A DNA stretch of 64,000 nucleotides from Eubacteriales bacterium. GTDB lineage: Bacteria > Bacillota > Clostridia > Oscillospirales > JAAYXM01. Of this stretch, positions 5,223-63,127 are shown one piece after another. The stretch is taken from contig JAZNAQ010000022.1 of the NCBI GenBank assembly GCA_045586595.1, positions 1,605 to 65,604 of the forward strand. The letters run 5' to 3'. Numbering within the stretch: the stretch's first letter is position 1; each line of letters opens with the position of its first letter. The position numbers were made by a program, and so were the translations under genes. The notes under the pieces were generated by a model. That model made no database searches. It was not told where the DNA came from and saw only the letters and a list, made by a program, of their open reading frames with translations.

Positions 5223-8200
5223 TTATGTCAGCTTAACTCCCACAGAGCGCTCTACTTCTGAAATGCTTATTGCAAGCATCTTAGATACACCCTTCTCCTG
5301 CATTGTTACACCGTAAAGAGCATCTGCCTCTTCCATTGTTCCTCGACGGTGAGTTATTACGATGAACTGTGTTGTCTCTGCCAGACGGCGTAAATACTCC
5401 GCATACCTTGCGACGTTTACATCGTCAAGCGCAGCCTCGATTTCGTCCAGTACACAGAACGGAGTCGGGCGAATCTTCATTATTGCAAAGTACAGCGCAA
5501 TAGCAACAAGCGCGCGCTCGCCACCAGAAAGAAGCGTTATTGTCTTAAGCGTCTTCCCCGGGGGCTGGACGCGTATTTCTATTCCGCAATTTAAGATGTC
5601 GCCCTCGTCCTCTAAGACGAGTTCTGCCTTACCGCCACCAAATATCTCGGCAAATGTCTCGCCGAAGTTGCGGTTGATTACCTTGAACTGCTCTGCAAAT
5701 ATAGTCTGCATTTCTTCGGTAATCTCAAAAATCATCTTTTCAAGCTCTGCCTTTGCCTTTTCAAGGTCACCACACTGCTTTGTCATAAACTCATAACGCT
5801 CGGATACGCGCTCATATTCTTCTATCGCATTTACGTTGACATCTCCGAGTTTTCTGACTGCGCTCTTAAGCGCTGATATACGCTTTGTGGCCTCAGACAT
5901 AGACTCTATCGGAACAATGTATTTTTCTGCAGTACCCATCGTAAGTTCATACGACTCCCACAGTTTTTCTGTTATCTGCTCCTCCTCGCGAGCGGCAGAC
6001 TCCTTCTTCATTTCAAGGCGTGAGCGCTCACGCTCAAGCTTTAATATATCATCGTTCTTTTCTTTACTTTCTTTATCCTTGCAGCTGCGCTCCGCTTCAA
6101 GATTAATGCGCGCCTCTGCAATATCACAAAGCCTCTGCTCTATGAGTTTTTTCTTCTCGCGGCGTGCTTCTGCCGCCGCCTTCTTCGCCAAAATTTCAGT
6201 TGCGAGTTCGTCATTCTGCTTTTCAATATCGCGGATGGTCTGCTCCTTTGAGGCGCGGTCTCCCGCCATTGCAGATGAAAGCATTTCTATTTCTTCAAGC
6301 GCACGTCGTGCCTCAGAAGACTCAGCAAGGTTTGCCGCAAGGCTTGCCTGAGCGGTCGCCATCTCCTCAGCGAGTTCGGTCTTTTGCGCGGCAAGGGACG
6401 AATTACCTTCAATAAGAGCCTCTTCCTCCTCGCGAAGCGCACTAAGCTCTTTTTCTTTATCTGCGATACACTCGATCGTTGTTTCTTTAACGCGCAGCGA
6501 CTGGCTTTTCTTCGCCGCAAGAGCTGTAAGCTCATCGTTCAATGAGTCTATAAGCTCGTTTAAGTGGCGGTGTAGCGTCTTGTAATGCTCAATTTCCGTC
6601 TCGGCTTTAAGCAGAACGTCCTCGGCATTGCGCTTATCGTTTCTGCAGACCTCCATCTCATACATAAGCGCATTATAGTCGCGCTCAGCTTCTGCCTTTT
6701 CGGTGTTGGTCTTCTCAATCTTTTCACGAAGTGCGACAATGTCGCCCTCGAGCTTCTTTATCTCATTTGTACGGGTAAGTATTCCGGAGGTCTTGTTCGT
6801 ACTACCGCCGGTATACGTACCGCCCGAGTTTATTATCTGCCCGTCAAGCGTGACTATACGGAAGCTGTAGCCGTATTTTTTCGCAACGGCAGACGCGCTG
6901 TTGATGTTATCGCAAACGACTATTTTGCCAAGCAAATAGCGGATTGCAGGCGCAAACTTCTCGTCATAGCCTACAAGGTTTGATGCAAGCCCGACAAATC
7001 CTGCCTGGTTTGAAAGACCCTGTTTATCAAGTTCGCTTCCCTTAACTGTATCAAGCGGCATGAACGTAGCCCTGCCGCCGTCGGTACGTTTTAAGAATGC
7101 GATTGCTTCTTTTGAGTCGCGCTCATCTGAAACTATTATATTCTGAAGTGCCCCGCCGAGAATCGTCTCAATGGCAACTGTGTACTTATCCTCAACTCGT
7201 ATAAGCTGAGAAACCGTACCGTAAATGCCGCCGAGATTGCCTTTATCCTTCGCTTTCATTATATTTTTAACTGCATACGAATACCCCTGCAAGTCGCGCT
7301 CCATCTCACGGAGCATACGAAGCTTATTCTCCATCGACTCAAGGGAAAGCTCAAGCTTTGAGCTCTGCTCGCGGAGCTTTTCAAAGCGCTCACCACGGGA
7401 TTTATACTTCATCTCAAAGCCGTTTAGCATATTATCCGCGCTTGAACACTTTTCCTCGGCTTCTTCGAGGTTTTCTTTAACAAGTGCAAACTTCTGCTTT
7501 GACTCAGAAAGCTCGGCTTCACGAGTGGCAAGCTCTGCCTCTATATCTGTTTTACGGGTATCAAAACCTGCAATCTCCGCATCAGAGGCGGACATTGCTA
7601 TTTTAAGTTTTGCAATATCGTCTTCGCAAATCCTGAAGCGCAGGCGTAAATCGTCAAGCTTTGCCGCCGCGTCATCACTCTTGCCTGAGGCAAGAAGTGC
7701 GGCTTCGCGCAGGCTCTCTATCTTCTCCTCTATGGTGCGGGCATCCGACTCAAGCTCACTCACACGCTTTTCTCGCGCTTTTATCTGTTCGGCAATGCTC
7801 TGTGCACGGTTTGTTTCGTCATTAATTTCTGCGCGGATACGTTCAATATTATGAAGATTGTTGGTGGAGGTAGACTCGAGCGCAGCTATTTCGCTTGCTA
7901 CCTCGTTTATCTCACGCTCTGCCTCACGCTCTTCGTCACGCGCTGCCTGCGCCTGCACATCCTTTTCGCGCATTTTCTCTGCGAGTTCTTCAACCTCTGC
8001 ATAGAGCGAATCGAGCGCAGCTTTAGAGGCAGCAAACTGACTGCATACCACCTCATAATCATTTATGTATTTCTGAGCATTCTCTTTTGCGCGGGCGAGG
8101 TTTTCTGTCCATACACTGACCTCAAGGCCCCGAAGCTCATCATATATTTTTATGTATTCACGGGCCTTTTCCGCCTGATGCTTAAGCGGGCCGACCTGCG

Positions 8201-9773: not shown

Positions 9774-9849
9774 GGGGGCGTAGCTCAGCTGGGAGAGCGC
9801 TGCGTTCGCAACGCAGAGGTCAAGGGTTCGATCCCCTCCGTCTCCACCA
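9774..9849 (+). tRNA. tRNA-Ala (anticodon CGC), CCA encoded
   Basis: Cloverleaf folded by hand: acceptor GGGGGCG/CGTCTCC with the G3:U70 alanine identity pair, D arm GCTC-AGCTGGGA-GAGC, anticodon arm CTGCG-TTCGCAA-CGCAG, T loop TTCGATC, then ACCA. Confidence 0.9.
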
Positions 9850-9911
9850 AACAGATAACGTACCATCCGCAAGGTTGGTGCGTTTTTTGTTTGGTGCCCG
9901 TGACGGTGAGG
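9830..9911 (+). repeat. Direct repeat copy A (tRNA-Ala from G57 to CCA, plus terminator, plus 23 nt)
   Basis: 82 nt repeated at 9981-10062 with a single mismatch (C9898 vs T10049). The period is 151 bp. Confidence 0.95.
9859..9888 (+). terminator. Intrinsic terminator after tRNA-Ala
   Basis: Hairpin CGTACCATCC-GCAA-GGTTGGTGCG followed by TTTTTT. An identical copy lies at 10010-10039. Confidence 0.7.
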
Positions 9912-9980
9912 GAGCGAACAGGACGGCGGCTCGCAAGCCGTAAAAAGGCTGCCGGTGGCAGGCTTTTTAGTCCGCGGGCA
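9912..9980 (+). ncRNA. Conserved structured core element (copy 1), function unknown
   Basis: 69 nt unique spacer between the repeats, homologous to 32571-32635. P1 is GGAC(9921-9924)/GTCC(9970-9973). Inside are hairpin H1 GCGGCT-CGCA-AGCCGT and GC-rich hairpin H2 AAAAAGGCTGCC-GGT-GGCAGGCTTTTT. It then runs into the duplicated tRNA 3' end (9981-10000). Confidence 0.4.
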
Positions 9981-10062
9981 GATCCCCTCCGTCTCCACCA
10001 AACAGATAACGTACCATCCGCAAGGTTGGTGCGTTTTTTGTTTGGTGTCCGTGACGGTGAGG
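9981..10062 (+). repeat. Direct repeat copy B (orphan tRNA-Ala 3' fragment G57-CCA, plus terminator copy)
   Basis: See copy A. There is no tRNA 5' half upstream of it. Confidence 0.95.
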
Positions 10063-32436: not shown

Positions 32437-32513
32437 GGGCCTTTAGCTCAGTTGGCTAGAGCTCCCGGCTCATAACCGGATGGTCCTGGGTTCGAGTCCC
32501 CGAAGGCCCACCA
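32437..32513 (+). tRNA. tRNA with anticodon CAU (elongator Met or lysidine-type Ile2; not distinguishable by eye), CCA encoded
   Basis: Acceptor GGGCCTT/AAGGCCC, D arm GCTC-AGTTGGCTA-GAGC, anticodon loop CTCATAA, T loop TTCGAGT, then ACCA. Confidence 0.88.
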
Positions 32514-32522
32514 AAGAAGATA
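32494..32522 (+). repeat. Direct repeat copy A (CAU-tRNA G57 to CCA, plus 9 nt)
   Basis: GAGTCCCCGAAGGCCCACCAAAGAAGATA is repeated exactly at 32636-32664. Confidence 0.95.
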
Positions 32523-32553
32523 ACACCGATTTTTATCGGTGTTATCTTTTTTT
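32517..32553 (+). terminator. Intrinsic terminator after the CAU tRNA
   Basis: AAGATAACACCGAT-TTTT-ATCGGTGTTATCTT plus T5. Confidence 0.85.
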
Positions 32554-32563
32554 GTGGCATCCT

Positions 32564-32635
32564 GAGGTGGACGAGAACAGCACGGCGACTTGTCGTAAAA
32601 AGGGTGCCGGTGGCACGCTTTTTAGTGCGCGGGTA
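32564..32635 (+). ncRNA. Conserved structured core element (copy 2), function unknown
   Basis: Homologous to 9904-9980. Shared blocks are TGA-N-GGTG, AACAG, P1 GCAC(32580-32583)/GTGC(32625-32628), H1 GCGA-CTTG-TCGT, H2 AAAAAGGGTGCC-GGT-GGCACGCTTTTT, and CGCGGG-YA. It is followed by the tRNA 3' duplicate. Confidence 0.4.
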
Positions 32636-32664
32636 GAGTCCCCGAAGGCCCACCAAAGAAGATA
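32636..32664 (+). repeat. Direct repeat copy B (orphan tRNA 3' fragment)
   Basis: Exact 29-nt copy with no tRNA 5' half preceding it. Confidence 0.95.
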
Positions 32665-32702
32665 CCGCACAGGAGATCAAAATTTCCGTGCGGTATCTTC
32701 TT
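32656..32702. terminator. Hairpin terminator after the orphan tRNA 3' fragment (also abuts the stop of the convergent EAL gene)
   Basis: AAGAAGATACCGCAC...GTGCGGTATCTTCTT, a 15-bp stem. Confidence 0.6.
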
Positions 32703-34096
32703 TAGTTTTTGTCATGCTTATATCTTTTCATAAACAGCTCACTCTCTTCAACCGGAAGCGGTTTCGAATAATACCATCCCTGAACATAATCGCAGTCTGA
32801 TTCTGATACAAGTTTGTTTTGTGCTTCGGTCTCAACACCCTCGCAAATCACCTTAATATTCAGATTGTGCGCAAGAGCGATAATGCCGGAGAAGAGGTCT
32901 CTTCCTTTTTTCGTATCCGTCTTAAGAAGAATATCGCGGTCGATTTTGACAACATCAATCGGATAATCGCAAAGATTAACAAGTGAAGTATATCCGCTTC
33001 CGAGGTCATCGAGATAGACATTAAAGCCGAGCGCCTTGCACTTTGCAACATTCTCCGTTGCCAGTTCCCTGTCTTTTTCCATCGCATCTTCGGTAATCTC
33101 AATAACAAGCTTTGACTTGTCAAATTTATAGCTGTTTGCAATCTCTGTAAATCTGTCAATAAAATTCTCTTCTGAGAGCGTAATTCGCGTGAAGTTACAG
33201 GAAATCATAATATCTTTACATTCTGTATCATTCCACTTTTCAAGCTGACGGCAGACAAGCTCAAACATATAAAAATCAAGTTTACTGATGAGGCCCACCG
33301 TTTCCATGTTTTCTATATACATACTCGGTGGAAGTAACCCCTTGTCCACACTATTCCATCTTGAAAGAGCTTCGGCGGATACTATTTTTTTCGTTTTGTT
33401 GTCAACAACAAACTGCAGATACATCTTAAACTCGTTGTTTTCAAAGCCCTTGAGTATATTCTCTGTAATTTGTTTTTCTTGCTGAATCGAACTCATAGAA
33501 TTGGAATCGCAATATACAATCTGTTTTTCGGTACCAAAAATCCTGTTGCAGTTTTTTCTCAGATTAAAAAGCAAAAGCTCACAGTTTAAATCAGATTCTG
33601 AAAGCGGATATACTGCTGCGTAGAACATAAGCTTTCGCCTTCTGTCTTCTGTCTTTCCAAAAGCATTGAGCGCACCCATAAGCTCATTCAGCCTTTTTTT
33701 GGCGTTCTCATCATCCGTCGCACGGAAAGCAAAAGCAAACCCGTTTTCGGTAATTCTTGCGGAGATTTCTTTTTCTTCTGTATGCTCCGTCAAAACAGAT
33801 GCGGCATACTTCAGCACATCCGTAAATGAATTTCCGTCGTGATACGGTCTTAAATAAGTGCTGTCCAAAATAATATACGCAACATGATACGTACTTCTCA
33901 GGATATCACCTATAGTGTACTTGAAATGATACTTAAAAAACTGCAGGTTCCCTATCCCTGTTTCAGTATCCGTCATTTTGCCTGCTTCTTTTTCTTTTTT
34001 TACTTGCCTTATTTTCACGAGCAAAACCGCTATCAAAACGAGCAAAACAGGAACAAGAACAAACCTTATCAAAATTTTATCCATCGGACTGATCAC
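32702..34096 (-). CDS. Membrane-anchored c-di-GMP phosphodiesterase (degenerate GGDEF-like region + EAL)
   Basis: 464 aa with an N-terminal TM helix and EAL motifs (SAEALSRW, DDLGSGYTSL, VKIDRD, EGVE). Confidence 0.8.
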   Translation of the reverse strand: MISPMDKILIRFVLVPVLLVLIAVLLVKIRQVKKEKEAGKMTDTETGIGNLQFFKYHFKYTIGDILRSTYHVAYIILDSTYLRPYHDGNSFTDVLKYAASVLTEHTEEKEISARITENGFAFAFRATDDENAKKRLNELMGALNAFGKTEDRRRKLMFYAAVYPLSESDLNCELLLFNLRKNCNRIFGTEKQIVYCDSNSMSSIQQEKQITENILKGFENNEFKMYLQFVVDNKTKKIVSAEALSRWNSVDKGLLPPSMYIENMETVGLISKLDFYMFELVCRQLEKWNDTECKDIMISCNFTRITLSEENFIDRFTEIANSYKFDKSKLVIEITEDAMEKDRELATENVAKCKALGFNVYLDDLGSGYTSLVNLCDYPIDVVKIDRDILLKTDTKKGRDLFSGIIALAHNLNIKVICEGVETEAQNKLVSESDCDYVQGWYYSKPLPVEESELFMKRYKHDKN

Positions 34097-34160: not shown

Positions 34161-34208
34161 AAAAACTGCAACAATAAGAAGCCCTATTACGGGCCCTTAT
34201 TATTGCAG
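34161..34208 (-). terminator. Intrinsic terminator after the GGDEF gene
   Basis: On the minus strand, a roughly 18-bp stem CTGCAATAATAAGGGCCC...GGGCTTCTTATTGTTGCAG followed by U5. Confidence 0.75.
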
Positions 34209-34327
34209 CTGGACTGGCATAGTATAAAACCTTAGCCTCTTGGCTTTGCGTCGCCGACTTTCGCCGGTTTTGCCAAATGTTCAATTTTCACCAGTTTATC
34301 ACACTAAAGCATTTTTGTCAAACACTT

Positions 34328-36628
34328 TTAATCTTTTGCAAAAACCCAGAGTGTTTCGTTAACACGCTCTTCTTCGTCGTTTAACTTATATACGCTGAGA
34401 ATAACAATTTCTCCGTTTACCCTCTTATAAGTAATTTTTGGAGTCTTACCTGCCATAAGCTGTTTTCTGATAGCGTCATAATTCAAGAAACTTGCCATAG
34501 ATCTGTGAAAATCGGGATGCACCATGTCACCCACATACGCTTCCAGTAGCTTTGAAAACTGTTCTTCATTTTCTTTATATCCCAGGTATGATGGCATAAG
34601 GATTCTGTATGCTCTATTCGTATCAAGAGAAACACGGTAGATTCCGTTATAATGCTCTTTCAACACAGAAATCATAGTATCAATTTCGCGAATTCCTGTT
34701 TTAGTCTGAACATAGCTGATATCTTCTGTTTCAACCGTACTCTTGTTTTCTTTGTTCTGGTAATACTGAGCCTTTGCTTCATACATTCTTATCTCAGCTT
34801 CTCTTACCATCTCTTCAGTGTCAGTGTTCTGGGTTCTGTAAGATGTACCGATTGCAACATTATAATTCATCGGCTTGAGTCGCTCTACAAGGAGAGATAC
34901 CCCATTTTTAATCAAACTCGCATCGGTTTCTTTTGCGAAAACAAGGAACTCGTCGCCGCCCATACGGTATATGTTGTGCCCATAAAATACTTCTTTTAAT
35001 GTATTTGCGATAAATATCAACATCTCATCGCCTTTGGCATGGCCGTATTTATTGTTTATGAGATGGAGCTCATTTACGTCAATGTAAACACAAGAAAAAT
35101 CTCTCGGTTTTTCGTTGTCAAACTCGTATAAATCCCTCTTATAAACAACGCGGTTGAGCACGCCCGTGAGCGAGTCTGTTGTTGCTGCATGCTCTGTTCT
35201 GTTGAGATGCTTCTTGTTGTAGAGTGCAATAGAGAAGCAAACGGCAATATTCTCTGCAAGAAGTCTTGCAGCTCTGCTCCTTGCCGGATTTATTGTACCG
35301 ATAATGGTGATCTGATTATCCTTGCTTGTTACGGCAGCAAAAGAAGCTTCTCTTATGCCATGAACTTTTAAAAATTCAAAAAATCTCGGGTTAGTTTTTG
35401 AAAGATGCTCATTCGGAACAATGCGCATGACACTGACGGTTGATTCACTTGTCTTTCGAAGCTGCGCTGAATAATGCAAGAGCTCTTCAATAAAATATTT
35501 TCTGTTCTCGCCGACTAAAAGATTATTTTCGTCTGTCGGCAAAACATAATGATAATTTTCTCCGTCAGTATCAAAAAAATATGCCGACTTTGCCCTTGGA
35601 AATTCACAGATCTTACGGAGTGCTTCTGTTATATTATTCTGCTGCTGATTTATCTCGAGAAGAGTTTTTCTCACATGCGAAGCACAGATAGTTACAGCAT
35701 TCCTCCGTCTTTCGTCAGCCATAACAATCAGCACATACAACACCATTACAACAGCCATCGCAAGGAAGGTGTAAACCAAAACACTTAATATGTTATGCGT
35801 ATCGGCAAAAACCTGTGACTCATATCGAGCAAGCATAATTCCCCAGTTAGAATCCTCTAACGTGGAGTAATGAACATACAAATCCTCTCCCGTAAGTATT
35901 GACTTGAACGAGGAGAATCCTTTATCAGATGTTTTTAACTCTTCATATGTATATCCGTCATTATACTTTCTGTTTTCAAATTGCGATAATTCGCCGGGAG
36001 TTTTGTTGATTGTATCAATAACAAACTTTCCGCTTTCTTTGTCGTACACAAAAAGCTGTGCATCAAGCTCTCTTGCCATTGTTACATACTTCTCACCTAT
36101 TGTTTCAAGCTTTATAACGCCGTACAACATGCCTACTGTCTTTTCGCCAACTTTAATCGGAACAGCGCTTCTTATAATCTCATAATCTTTTCGTGTAAGG
36201 TCAGAAACTCTACCGCTTATATATGCACCTTTACGGGCTTCTTCCTCAAAAGAAATTTTGCCGTTTAAATCCAGCGAGCCCGCTTTTGTAACAAACGTAT
36301 TATCCGGATTCAGAATGCCAATATTCGAGAACAAGCCTATTGGTTCAAATGACGCAAACATCCTGTCATAGTTTTCGCCGTCAGCATACAGCTTTGCAGC
36401 AAAATGCGCCATCGTAACAAGATTTTCTCTGTCAGATTTTATCTGCAGTGTCAAGTCGTCTTTAATCTGCTTTGTCTGAAGATGGAGCATTTCGTATGCC
36501 TCATCTTCAGCCTTTGTATGCAACCAGCTGACCATAGATAAAAATATCGCGCACAACAAAACAACGGTTATAACCGTATAAACAATGTTATTTTGTCTCT
36601 GCTTTCTTTTCCCGTATGTTGCTGCCAT
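34328..36628 (-). CDS. Sensor diguanylate cyclase (TM, extracytoplasmic Cache-like domain, TM, GAF/PAS-like, GGDEF, extra C-terminal domain)
   Basis: 766 aa with an intact RMGGDEF active site. About 190 aa of unassigned domain follow the GGDEF. Confidence 0.8.
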   Translation of the reverse strand: MAATYGKRKQRQNNIVYTVITVVLLCAIFLSMVSWLHTKAEDEAYEMLHLQTKQIKDDLTLQIKSDRENLVTMAHFAAKLYADGENYDRMFASFEPIGLFSNIGILNPDNTFVTKAGSLDLNGKISFEEEARKGAYISGRVSDLTRKDYEIIRSAVPIKVGEKTVGMLYGVIKLETIGEKYVTMARELDAQLFVYDKESGKFVIDTINKTPGELSQFENRKYNDGYTYEELKTSDKGFSSFKSILTGEDLYVHYSTLEDSNWGIMLARYESQVFADTHNILSVLVYTFLAMAVVMVLYVLIVMADERRRNAVTICASHVRKTLLEINQQQNNITEALRKICEFPRAKSAYFFDTDGENYHYVLPTDENNLLVGENRKYFIEELLHYSAQLRKTSESTVSVMRIVPNEHLSKTNPRFFEFLKVHGIREASFAAVTSKDNQITIIGTINPARSRAARLLAENIAVCFSIALYNKKHLNRTEHAATTDSLTGVLNRVVYKRDLYEFDNEKPRDFSCVYIDVNELHLINNKYGHAKGDEMLIFIANTLKEVFYGHNIYRMGGDEFLVFAKETDASLIKNGVSLLVERLKPMNYNVAIGTSYRTQNTDTEEMVREAEIRMYEAKAQYYQNKENKSTVETEDISYVQTKTGIREIDTMISVLKEHYNGIYRVSLDTNRAYRILMPSYLGYKENEEQFSKLLEAYVGDMVHPDFHRSMASFLNYDAIRKQLMAGKTPKITYKRVNGEIVILSVYKLNDEEERVNETLWVFAKD

Positions 36629-62820: not shown

Positions 62821-63127
62821 AAAACGCTTTCATCTCTTTGTTATCCTTTAATAACTCAAAGAGACGAAAGCGTTAAAACTCAAGTATTTAAACCTTTCGC
62901 GGTACCACTCTTTTTCATCCTACGGCGAGGATGCACCTCAGGTGCTGACACACCTTGACTCTGTTACGGGAGCTCCCGTCCGCCCCTACTCTCTTTCAAT
63001 TTCACGGCAGCCGCTCCGTGGTGAGTTCAACGAGGCTAACCCAATGCCTTGCACCAACCGGCATCTCTCTGCGCGGGTATAAGCTTTTCGCATACTATTC
63101 CACATCATCGCGTTTGTTTTCAATTTG
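62821..63127 (-). promoter_or_regulatory. T-box riboswitch, specifier CUC (Leu)
   Basis: Promoter TTGACA (63162-63157), 17 nt spacer, TATAAT (63139-63134). Stem I has GCGAUGAUGUGG, the AGUA S-turn, AGAGAG and a GGUGCAA distal loop. Textbook specifier loop GAA-CUC-A-CCAC (plus 63023-63025). T-box AGAGUGGUACCGCGAAAGG (62896-62912). Terminator AACGCUUUC...GAAAGCGUU plus U4 (62821-62874). Confidence 0.9.

Follow-up and report, generated by a model that had tools for sequence, protein, structure and literature searches.

Why is each of the two tRNA genes in a 64,000-nt stretch of a Eubacteriales genome (contig JAZNAQ010000022.1; the whole stretch is called here the window) followed by a second, displaced copy of its own 3' end, and what is the foldable sequence lodged between the two copies? 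The original prediction, drawn from the letters alone, had read these places (9904-10000 and 32564-32655) as a folded RNA made of a three-way junction, a pseudo T-arm, an acceptor 3' strand and CCA. As described below, each element is a cargo-less insertion unit, bounded by tRNA-end repeats and variable between strains. In its central three-way junction, formed by the helices P1, H1 and H2, the tRNA-sense strand adopts a fold that is, to judge from the pattern of base-pair changes, genuinely under selection.

According to ARAGORN and Rfam the window holds two tRNA genes, tRNA-Ala(CGC) and tRNA-Met(CAT), both on the + strand. Behind each the parts follow in the order X-T-X'-core, and then comes a second direct copy of X, denoted X2. 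X is the tRNA's 3' end, from T-loop G57/A58 to CCA, T is a terminator hairpin, and X' is a diverged inverted copy of X. Units measure ~137-151 bp, occupy the 3' portion of tRNA or transfer-messenger RNA (tmRNA) genes, and hold no open reading frame within their 137-151 nt. The parts are the following.

9774-9849, + strand: tRNA-Ala(CGC) (ARAGORN; Rfam tRNA, 58.7 bits).
9830-9849, + strand: Ala X1, the last 20 nt of tRNA-Ala, T-loop G57/A58 to CCA (direct repeat D1).
9850-9889, + strand: Ala A-rich spacer, hairpin T and T-run (inverted repeat I2; comparison of units).
~9858-9883, + strand: Ala T stem-loop, ACGTACCATCC-GCAA-GGTTGGTGCGT.
9890-9919, + strand: Ala X' (TTTGGTG CCC GTGACGG TGAGGG AGCGAAC), inverted diverged tRNA-Ala 3' end (fold, duplex energy).
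9914-9982, + strand: Ala core, 69 nt (covariance model R1, 93.9 bits; pair counts; RNAalifold).
9921-9924/9970-9973, 9926-9941 and 9942-9968, + strand: P1, H1 and H2 (with A5/T5 tracts) of the Ala core.
9974-9982, + strand: 3' tail of the Ala core, GCGGGCAGA.
9981-10000, + strand: Ala X2, tRNA-Ala 3' end repeated directly, with CCA (direct repeat).
10001-10062, + strand: truncated second Ala unit, with spacer, T hairpin and, at 10041-10062, a partial X' (repeat D1).
32437-32513, + strand: tRNA-Met(CAT) (ARAGORN; Rfam).
32494-32513, + strand: Met X1, the repeat running on to 32522 (repeat D1).
32514-32549, + strand: Met spacer and hairpin T, AAGAAGATAACACCGAT-TTTT-ATCGGTGTTATCTTT (inverted repeat I1; fold).
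32550-32578, + strand: Met X', TTTTGTGGCATCCTGAGGTGGACGAGAAC, inverted diverged tRNA-Met 3' end (fold, duplex energy).
32573-32637, + strand: Met core (model R1, 79.6 bits).
32580-32583/32625-32628, 32585-32596 and 32597-32623, + strand: P1, H1 and H2 of the Met core.
32629-32637, + strand: tail of the Met core, GCGGGTAGA.
32636-32664, + strand: Met X2, the displaced tRNA-Met 3' end (32636-32655) plus 9 nt (repeat D1, inverted repeat I2).
32652-32706, + strand: native terminator 3' of Met X2 (inverted repeat I2).

Homologues were collected, and 28 distinct cores were aligned, scored against the predicted P1/H1/H2 junction and used to build the covariance model R1. P1 reads GGAC/GTCC in the Ala copy and GCAC/GTGC in the Met copy, the compensatory change already pointed out by the prediction, and the 28 homologues extend the series with GGGC/GCCC and with G-U forms. 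H2 is in both window copies an A5-stem-T5 hairpin in which one C-G pair is flipped to G-C, again as foreseen, and an internal G.G mismatch is kept. H1 is, as had been noticed, a stem of differing length with a tetraloop, CGCA in Ala and CUUG in the shorter Met stem-loop. Across the alignment 99.3% of the P1/H1/H2 cells are standard pairs, and changes on both sides are found in 8 of the 21 pairs; four pairs vary in H1, and one pair of H2 alternates among GC, CG and UA. The covariation score is 0.258, versus 0.089 ± 0.010 in shuffled alignments (0 of 500 shuffles reach 0.258). Pairing falls to 34-50% in control registers shifted by 1-3 columns, and RNAalifold independently gives the identical structure. 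Junction and loop nucleotides are invariant. That most of H2 is invariant is partly a matter of ascertainment, as H2 served as search seed, and H2 can vary in units found by other routes (a U-A stem pair in L010a, G.G replaced by A.C in L106; labels L001-L131 denote the fetched homologous and comparison contigs). The 10 wobble cells of the core all read as G-U when taken on the tRNA-sense strand, with no A-C among them, which makes this strand the one that folds.

Covariation methods cannot separate RNA from single-stranded DNA (ssDNA), and also recover ssDNA sites such as attC (PMC5737381). The core may therefore be RNA or ssDNA: of the folded RNA originally predicted, the selected junction is supported, its RNA nature is not. 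The parts placed outside the junction are reinterpreted. The supposed T-arm, a hairpin of just 3 G-C pairs, shows no covariation and does not appear in minimum-energy folds. What was taken for a pseudo T-arm with acceptor strand and CCA is the junction of the core tail, which ends in GCGGGYAGA, with a tRNA 3' end repeated in direct orientation: 9981-10000 equals 9830-9849, and 32636-32655 equals 32494-32513. The TGA-N-GGTG box, likened to the NCCA pairing of T-box leaders, sits inside X' (9890-9919 in Ala, 32550-32578 in Met). The T-box reading was rejected because this box forms one edge of a ~30-nt stretch repeating the tRNA end in inverted form; across the terminator, that inverted copy pairs with the 3' end of its own tRNA in the minimum free energy (MFE) fold.

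The window unit and 37 other units are flanked by direct repeats of the tRNA 3' end, which stop 0-9 nt past CCA. In the Ala unit the repeat spans 89 nt (9830-9918/9981-10069, 96% identical, spacing 151). Since it takes in another T hairpin along with part of an X', the segment 10001-10062 is a truncated second unit; it abuts native DNA directly (..AATCTAATATAACTTC), and in the related strain L119 native TATAACTTC is found immediately 3' of its T hairpin. The Met direct repeat covers 29-34 nt, and the arms of the Met inverted repeat I1 are 23 nt long and 91% complementary.

Variation between strains was monitored in contigs obtained from homologues of the DUF4364 gene adjoining tRNA-Met. Five contigs with identical DUF4364 protein (L109, L110, L112-L114) have an empty site, in which tRNA-Met is directly followed by the terminator, and mark the same boundary as Met X2 (32636-32664). 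L111, which encodes the identical protein, hosts one extra 137-nt unit bounded by the repeat GAGTCCCCGAAGGCCCACCAAAA, and its flanks are the same except for an exchanged terminator hairpin right of the repeat. A more distant relative, L107, has an empty site as well. In L106, where the neighbour protein is 98% identical to that of the window, the same core is accompanied by a wholly different T and X'. Tandem arrays of units were found in L001, L010, L031, L046, L056, L092 and L099. As in elements known to integrate in tRNA genes (tDNA), the insert is bounded by the tRNA 3' repeat and lies between the intact gene and the displaced fragment, and close relatives feature an empty site with boundaries at the repeat. 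By analogy, the placement of Ala and Met X2 resembles that of an attR site. Closely related strains gain, lose or exchange units, which also stack in tandem.

A fixed T-loop junction is common to two unrelated core types and to a 'Z' module. It reads ..GGGTA|GA.TCCC in core-1 and ..CAGAAAAGC|GA.TCCC in core-2 units. Core-2 (..AGTCCGGTGGACT..CCGTGGCTTTTCCGCAGAAAAGC|GA.TCCC) is found in L010 (1-470), alternating with core-1 units, and in L119 (1-120), a 96% SstT relative in which it fills the position of the window's Ala locus. The 'Z' module (GATCCCC-AAGTAAA..) lies behind both Ala and tmRNA units. T hairpins of the type ACCAGCCGnAGGTTGGT are carried by units at other tRNAs as well and move with the units among tRNAs, the sequence 3' of X2 being locus-specific. 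The same genes host also larger inserts, such as a 2-kb AraC/creatininase islet (L002) and, in tmRNA, prophages encoding a large serine recombinase (LSR). A search for synteny at the Ala locus left L119 as the sole informative relative, other SstT homologues being non-syntenic.

The H2 hairpin was the query of the single scan, run on species-representative genomes, from which the homologues derive. The scan yielded 100 loci, mostly in metagenome-assembled genomes (MAGs) of Oscillospiraceae, 'Eubacteriales' and Lachnospiraceae from animal guts. The full core is present in 40 instances, both window copies included, and wherever the contig permits checking it is located 65-70 nt downstream of a same-strand gene, which may be tRNA-Ser(TGA), Ser(GGA), Met, Tyr, Val, Ala(GGC), Ala(CGC), Lys or tmRNA. 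The same 69-nt core recurs at >10 different tRNA/tmRNA genes. Model R1 detects exactly two copies in the window (93.9 and 79.6 bits; next + strand match <9 bits, - strand 18.9 bits) and 42 in the fetched loci (54-101 bits), and a 40-nt core pattern has only two matches in the window, 0 being expected by chance. No Rfam family falls on the element in either gathering or permissive scans, the best non-tRNA score being that of tmRNA_permuted (18.2 bits, gathering score 47). A literature search on the hairpin sequence, on motifs 3' of tRNA genes and on folded attP at tRNA genes gave no account of the element. The unit family behind tRNA/tmRNA genes of gut Oscillospiraceae is apparently undescribed. 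No downstream gene is consistently shared by the units.

Mean pairwise identities between orthologous units of different species are 0.90-0.98 in the core, 0.67-0.87 in X', 0.66-0.70 in T and 0.52-0.54 in native downstream DNA. Cores of tmRNA units are 69/69 identical in four genomes, the downstream DNA being by eye ~15% different, and orthologous cores 100% identical are found between flanks diverged by ~15-45%. Paralogous cores at different tRNAs of one genome feature distinct H1, P1 and H2 variants; as paralogues differ and orthologues are identical, core conservation does not result from concerted evolution. The Met P1/H1 variant is lineage-specific, and recurs in L006, L016, L046, L069, L106 and L111. 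Judged by the excess conservation of the core over its flanks (0.90-0.98 versus 0.52-0.54), the unit is not a neutral scar, and the prediction rightly saw in it more than the trace of a recombination event.

It is accordingly improbable that units are inert remnants, in which attL/attR arms of decayed islands adjoin ordinary terminators and hairpins covary as terminators must. T, with its long stems and T-runs, and H2 do fit the intrinsic-terminator pattern, H2 on both strands in the Ala and Met copies; displaced tRNA fragments are common integration debris (PMC4383910, PMC9897764), and some X2 are decayed. The pattern is however restricted to T and H2, to the exclusion of P1 and H1, and P1, which is no terminator, covaries too. 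Moreover, junction and loops are invariant, the core is better kept than T within the same unit, and the same 69-nt core is found behind more than 10 tRNA/tmRNA genes.

The reading preferred here, at a probability of about 0.4, is that units are non-autonomous site-specific cassettes, which by analogy with known systems would recombine at the T loop through a trans-acting enzyme recognizing the folded core. A unit would enter or leave by recombination at a fixed T-loop point, corresponding to TTCGA| in the tRNA and GTAGA| at the core end. The inserted unit supplies a replacement tRNA 3' end, the native 3' end being pushed downstream as X2. A recombinase encoded elsewhere would act on the unit in trans, and the folded core, probably with the X/X' inverted repeat, would be the structure recognized by the machinery, in the way of integron cassettes, with their folded attC, or of CTX phage, with its folded attP. 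T and H2 would double as transcription terminators insulating the tRNA. It is conceivable, if rather doubtful, that such units make up a new class of site-specific mini-cassettes, in which the junction fold, as ssDNA or RNA, directs T-loop insertion at many tRNA and tmRNA genes by a trans enzyme, arrays are integron-like, and the widespread H2 hairpin with its CCGGTGG loop serves as a recognition mark.

Several observations weigh against mobile cassettes. No recombinase is encoded in or next to any unit, the neighbours being housekeeping genes, and no true copy, hence no carrier, was found among viral contigs (2.9 M), INPHARED phages and PLSDB plasmids. The LSR genes upstream of the L033 and L063 units belong to prophages in tmRNA X1, which integrated independently, upstream of a resident unit. 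LSRs were thus rejected as mobilizing enzymes; a close LSR relative is found without unit in L104. The L063 locus belongs to Angelakisella massiliensis Marseille-P3217, a cultured carrier. Integron R boxes (RYYYAAC/GTTRRRY) are absent by inspection of the units, whose left (..(T/G)CGAAC or GAGAAC) and right (GTAGA(N)T) ends have only AAC and GT in common with them. An integron integrase or cassette platform was similarly not found in the loci examined, which do not amount to an exhaustive genome search. Copy-number changes and allele swaps are explicable by homologous recombination between repeats, or between tRNA and core. While folding of the core is + strand specific, X:X' is without + strand bias (6 G-U pairs on + versus 15 on -), and X' may for this reason be merely a DNA-level inverted repeat. 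Orthologous cores stay unchanged while X2 decays (L060, L070, L092), and the conservation of cores in place looks more like selection in situ than like the behaviour of a hopping element.

Candidate carriers L105 and L101 were discarded as chance matches within coding DNA; the scan of JGI metagenomes returned the chance match L101 alone. Units with a truncated X2 were considered as island junctions, and discarded because followed by genes such as DinB, IMPDH and the like. Prophages with an LSR are found in L102 (1-9712), L103 (1-11734) and L104, and a CI-type repressor and SSB are among their genes. Those of L103 and L104 encode also bAvd and a reverse transcriptase resembling that of diversity-generating retroelements (DGR). 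Those of L102 and L103 are inserted in the tmRNA 3' end, with a hybrid site GTGTTCGTTT(T/A)A(C/G)CTCCCCAA..TCCACCA just upstream of the resident unit.

Possible, at longer odds than the cassettes, is that the core is a structured RNA kept by the host in the 3' trailer of tRNA and tmRNA, the unit having spread by DNA duplication and persisting for an RNA role. The core would then be a processing, termination or stability module, or part of an X':X2 tRNA-like molecule, in which an acceptor/T-stem-like helix with 3' CCA is capped by the three-way junction. G-U pairs of both core and T are found only on the tRNA-sense, i.e. transcribed, strand; in T they number 28 on the + and 0 on the - strand, the pattern expected of T as the RNA terminator of the tRNA. 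Identity of orthologous cores amid diverged flanks is typical of a function exerted in place, and lineage-specific H1/P1 variants kept by paralogues at different tRNAs within one genome indicate that cores are not being homogenized. The MFE fold at the Ala locus is a long imperfect X1-T-X' hairpin (9826-9919, ~45 bp, z = -7.35), which recurs as MFE fold in nearly all loci; when X1 is omitted, it becomes an X':X2 helix closing P1/H1/H2, and the distance from X' to CCA is constant (113-118 nt). On the other hand, no promoter-like site was seen ahead of the core, which is preceded by a strong T, and H2 with its T5 lies within the core upstream of the P1 3' strand. Two terminator-like hairpins are thus found between the tRNA promoter and the P1 3' strand. 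The acceptor strand and CCA of X2 are lost beside an intact core in L050, L055, L060, L070, L075, L077 and L092, and in the Ala(GGC) lineage a decayed X2 is followed by housekeeping genes, the core being again intact. These losses beside identical cores rule out a tRNA-like CCA minihelix as the reason for core conservation. The X':X helix is bulged and lacks a + strand G-U bias, no Rfam family matches, and no downstream gene recurs. An aminoacylatable minihelix was likewise discarded, the helix being bulged and X2 dispensable.

X' tracks its cognate tRNA, as indicated by predicted duplex energies and by changes followed within lineages. The duplex of X' with the cognate tRNA end has a mean energy of -20.2 kcal/mol, versus -15.3 with non-cognate ends; values are -29.4 versus -16.8 kcal/mol for Ala X', and -24.3 versus -14.9 kcal/mol for Met X'. 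In the Ala(GGC) lineage the indel pattern of X' is constant while acceptor-stem changes are followed, CCGTCTC/GAGACGG (L060) turning into CCATCTC/GAGATGG (L091). A retro origin, in which X' is a primer-binding site and units result from tRNA-primed or snap-back reverse transcription of read-through trailers and subsequent integration, is highly improbable. X' complements its cognate tRNA over the final ~25 nt and stops precisely at the T loop, the terminator loop is found in both orientations (ACCAACCTTACGGATGGT in L070, ACCATCCGTAAGGTTGGT in L092), and reverse transcriptases exist in these genomes, as the DGR ones of L103 and L104. None is however associated with units, X' is imperfect and features lineage-shared indels, and is therefore inherited rather than re-copied each time, and loop inversion can arise by stem-arm recombination. 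Both the retro origin and the inert scar are less likely than the cassette and the RNA.

The opposite loops belong to T hairpins of homologous units (L070 ~2150-2200, L092 ~5460-5510), the palindrome centre being flipped. In L092 (~5356-5420) the tRNA-Ala(GGC) gene upstream of the units has a ~46-nt insertion (CTTGCGGGGAACTCGACAGAGTTCACCGGAGCCGATAGTTCGGCTC) in the anticodon-arm region, and is no longer called by ARAGORN.

Variant units with different cores were noticed in L005 (3450-3940, - strand), L008, L093, L022 (4560-4860) and L021 (5434-5580). Their grammar includes tRNA, terminator, inverted copy, P1 plus an H2-type hairpin, and a tRNA-end copy, and they are hosted by tRNA-Tyr, tRNA-Arg(ACG) and tRNA-Ser(CGA). 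The inverted repeat GGCAGGATTCG/CGAATCCTGCC of the L022 unit is perfect. MAGs that bear the label Alphaproteobacteria (L053 ~1270-1580, L085 and L094) have an incomplete 5' copy of tRNA-Met (GGGCCCTTAGCTCAGTTGGTTAGC) ahead of the H2 hairpin, ~200 nt upstream of the complete tRNA-Met; the duplication is here on the 5' side of the gene. A module of ~110 nt lies behind two unrelated tRNA loci from different species, the one Ser(GGA), the other Met (L002 2650-2760; L109-L114 ~2185-2300). It is made of a terminator AAAAATCGACATTCTTC.ACAGAGGAATGTCGATTTT followed by ACTTATTACC..CACTATTCC..GGTAATAGTGAA, and represents a small repeat at tRNA 3' flanks.

Genes near the window units encode SMC, SstT, pyruvate kinase, DUF4364 and EAL/GGDEF proteins. 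The EAL/GGDEF gene (32702-34096, - strand) converges on the tRNA-Met unit, and directly upstream of it is a c-di-GMP-I (cyclic di-GMP) riboswitch (34201-34284, - strand, 62.5 bits); another GGDEF gene is found at 34328-36628. Contigs L123-L131 come from a species with an SstT 82% identical in sequence; there the stretch upstream of sstT varies among strains with identical protein, a tyrosine integrase together with YpsA, AbiEii and DUF5131 being among the variable genes. Within the 1.2 kb examined of this separate variable hot spot there is no tRNA.

If units are mobile, abundant gut Clostridia host an unfamiliar recombination system, and possibly a programmable att module targeting tRNA genes; if the core is RNA, it founds a new class of structured RNAs tied to tRNA 3' trailers. 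Either way, unit copies should be masked when island ends are mapped by tRNA fragments.

tRNA and tmRNA genes are classic landing sites of islands and prophages, and Williams (NAR 30:866, cited in PMC9897764) is said to have placed, in 2002, integrase att sites at the T-loop sublocation of tRNA genes. To our knowledge, displaced tRNA fragments have hitherto been read as passive marks of large elements. An island that splits a tRNA gene also restores it, and the fragment it displaces is left behind (PMC4383910). The logic of displaced fragments is hence the known part of the picture, the tDNA hot-spot architecture being reduced here to gene-less units. As in tDNA islands and prophages, the tRNA is split and regenerated, displacement turns the native 3' fragment into a direct repeat reaching CCA or slightly beyond, tmRNA is targeted, accretion occurs in tandem, and presence varies by strain. 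Unlike tDNA islands, the unit spans ~140-150 bp without integrase or other gene, and carries a covarying 69-nt core, kept at >10 tRNAs, and an inverted tRNA-end copy. The ~140-bp gene-less unit, the conserved junction, the tRNA-matched inverted copy and the heterogeneous mini-cassette arrays appear to be undescribed, since neither an Rfam family nor a literature match was found.

Tying of an acceptor 3' strand and NCCA to a complementary upstream strand is shared with T-box and with tRNA-like RNAs (tmRNA domain, minihelices, Y-RNA module), as is a branched insertion in place of the T loop. Unlike these, the element has no anticodon or specifier, dispenses with CCA and acceptor in some lineages, and features terminators both upstream of the core and within it. 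tRNA and tmRNA covariance models match only the true tRNA and not the element, and the T-box model has no match at the element, which sits 3' of tRNA genes. The sole T-box leader of the window (62857-63117, - strand) is full-length, scores 107 bits, and is unrelated to the tRNA-linked elements.

Units are, like repetitive extragenic palindromes (REP) and bacterial interspersed mosaic elements (BIME), Correia elements and terminators made by pairs of DNA uptake sequences (DUS), short, multi-copy and intergenic, with hairpins of A-tract, GC stem and T-tract. They differ from these in being tied to tRNA 3' ends, in having tRNA-specific repeats, and in forming a three-way junction and not a single hairpin. 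A repeat derived from miniature inverted-repeat transposable elements (MITE) or insertion sequences (IS) was rejected, as the repeat is the tRNA end, ranges from 20 to 89 nt and is tRNA-specific, and is no fixed-length duplication. IS200/IS605-type ends were rejected too; T is unlikely to be a transposase site because this left hairpin is not conserved between lineages. The H2 hairpin, with loop CCGGTGG, is found also as a REP-like repeat at many Lachnospiraceae gene ends. These hairpins (AAAGG..GCCGGTGGC..GCTTT, flanked by ..ATGCA(A/G) and (T/C)TGCAT..) follow gene-end terminators in Lachnospiraceae and Blautia, at loci including L009, L011-L015, L018, L020, L026, L029, L030, L036, L040-L044, L047, L049 and L051; UBA7729 has >10 copies, and the copies are not tRNA-linked. 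In a different multi-copy element of Clostridiales RUG12722 (L027, L028, L034, L048, L052, L061, L082 and L095), the H2 hairpin is joined by GGGCTCGAA.. / ..GGCCTCGAAC boxes and by another GC hairpin.

Integron attC sites and the attP(+) of CTX phage offer the last term of comparison. Unlike them, the unit has no R-box consensus, intI/attI platform or dif site, its target is the tRNA T loop, its centre is conserved in sequence besides shape, and X:X' shows no strand bias. Like them, it has an imperfect inverted repeat around a structured centre, a core whose folding is strand-specific, and small modules aligned head to tail with one fixed junction, and sites of this kind can be discovered by the covariation analysis devised for RNA (PMC5737381).

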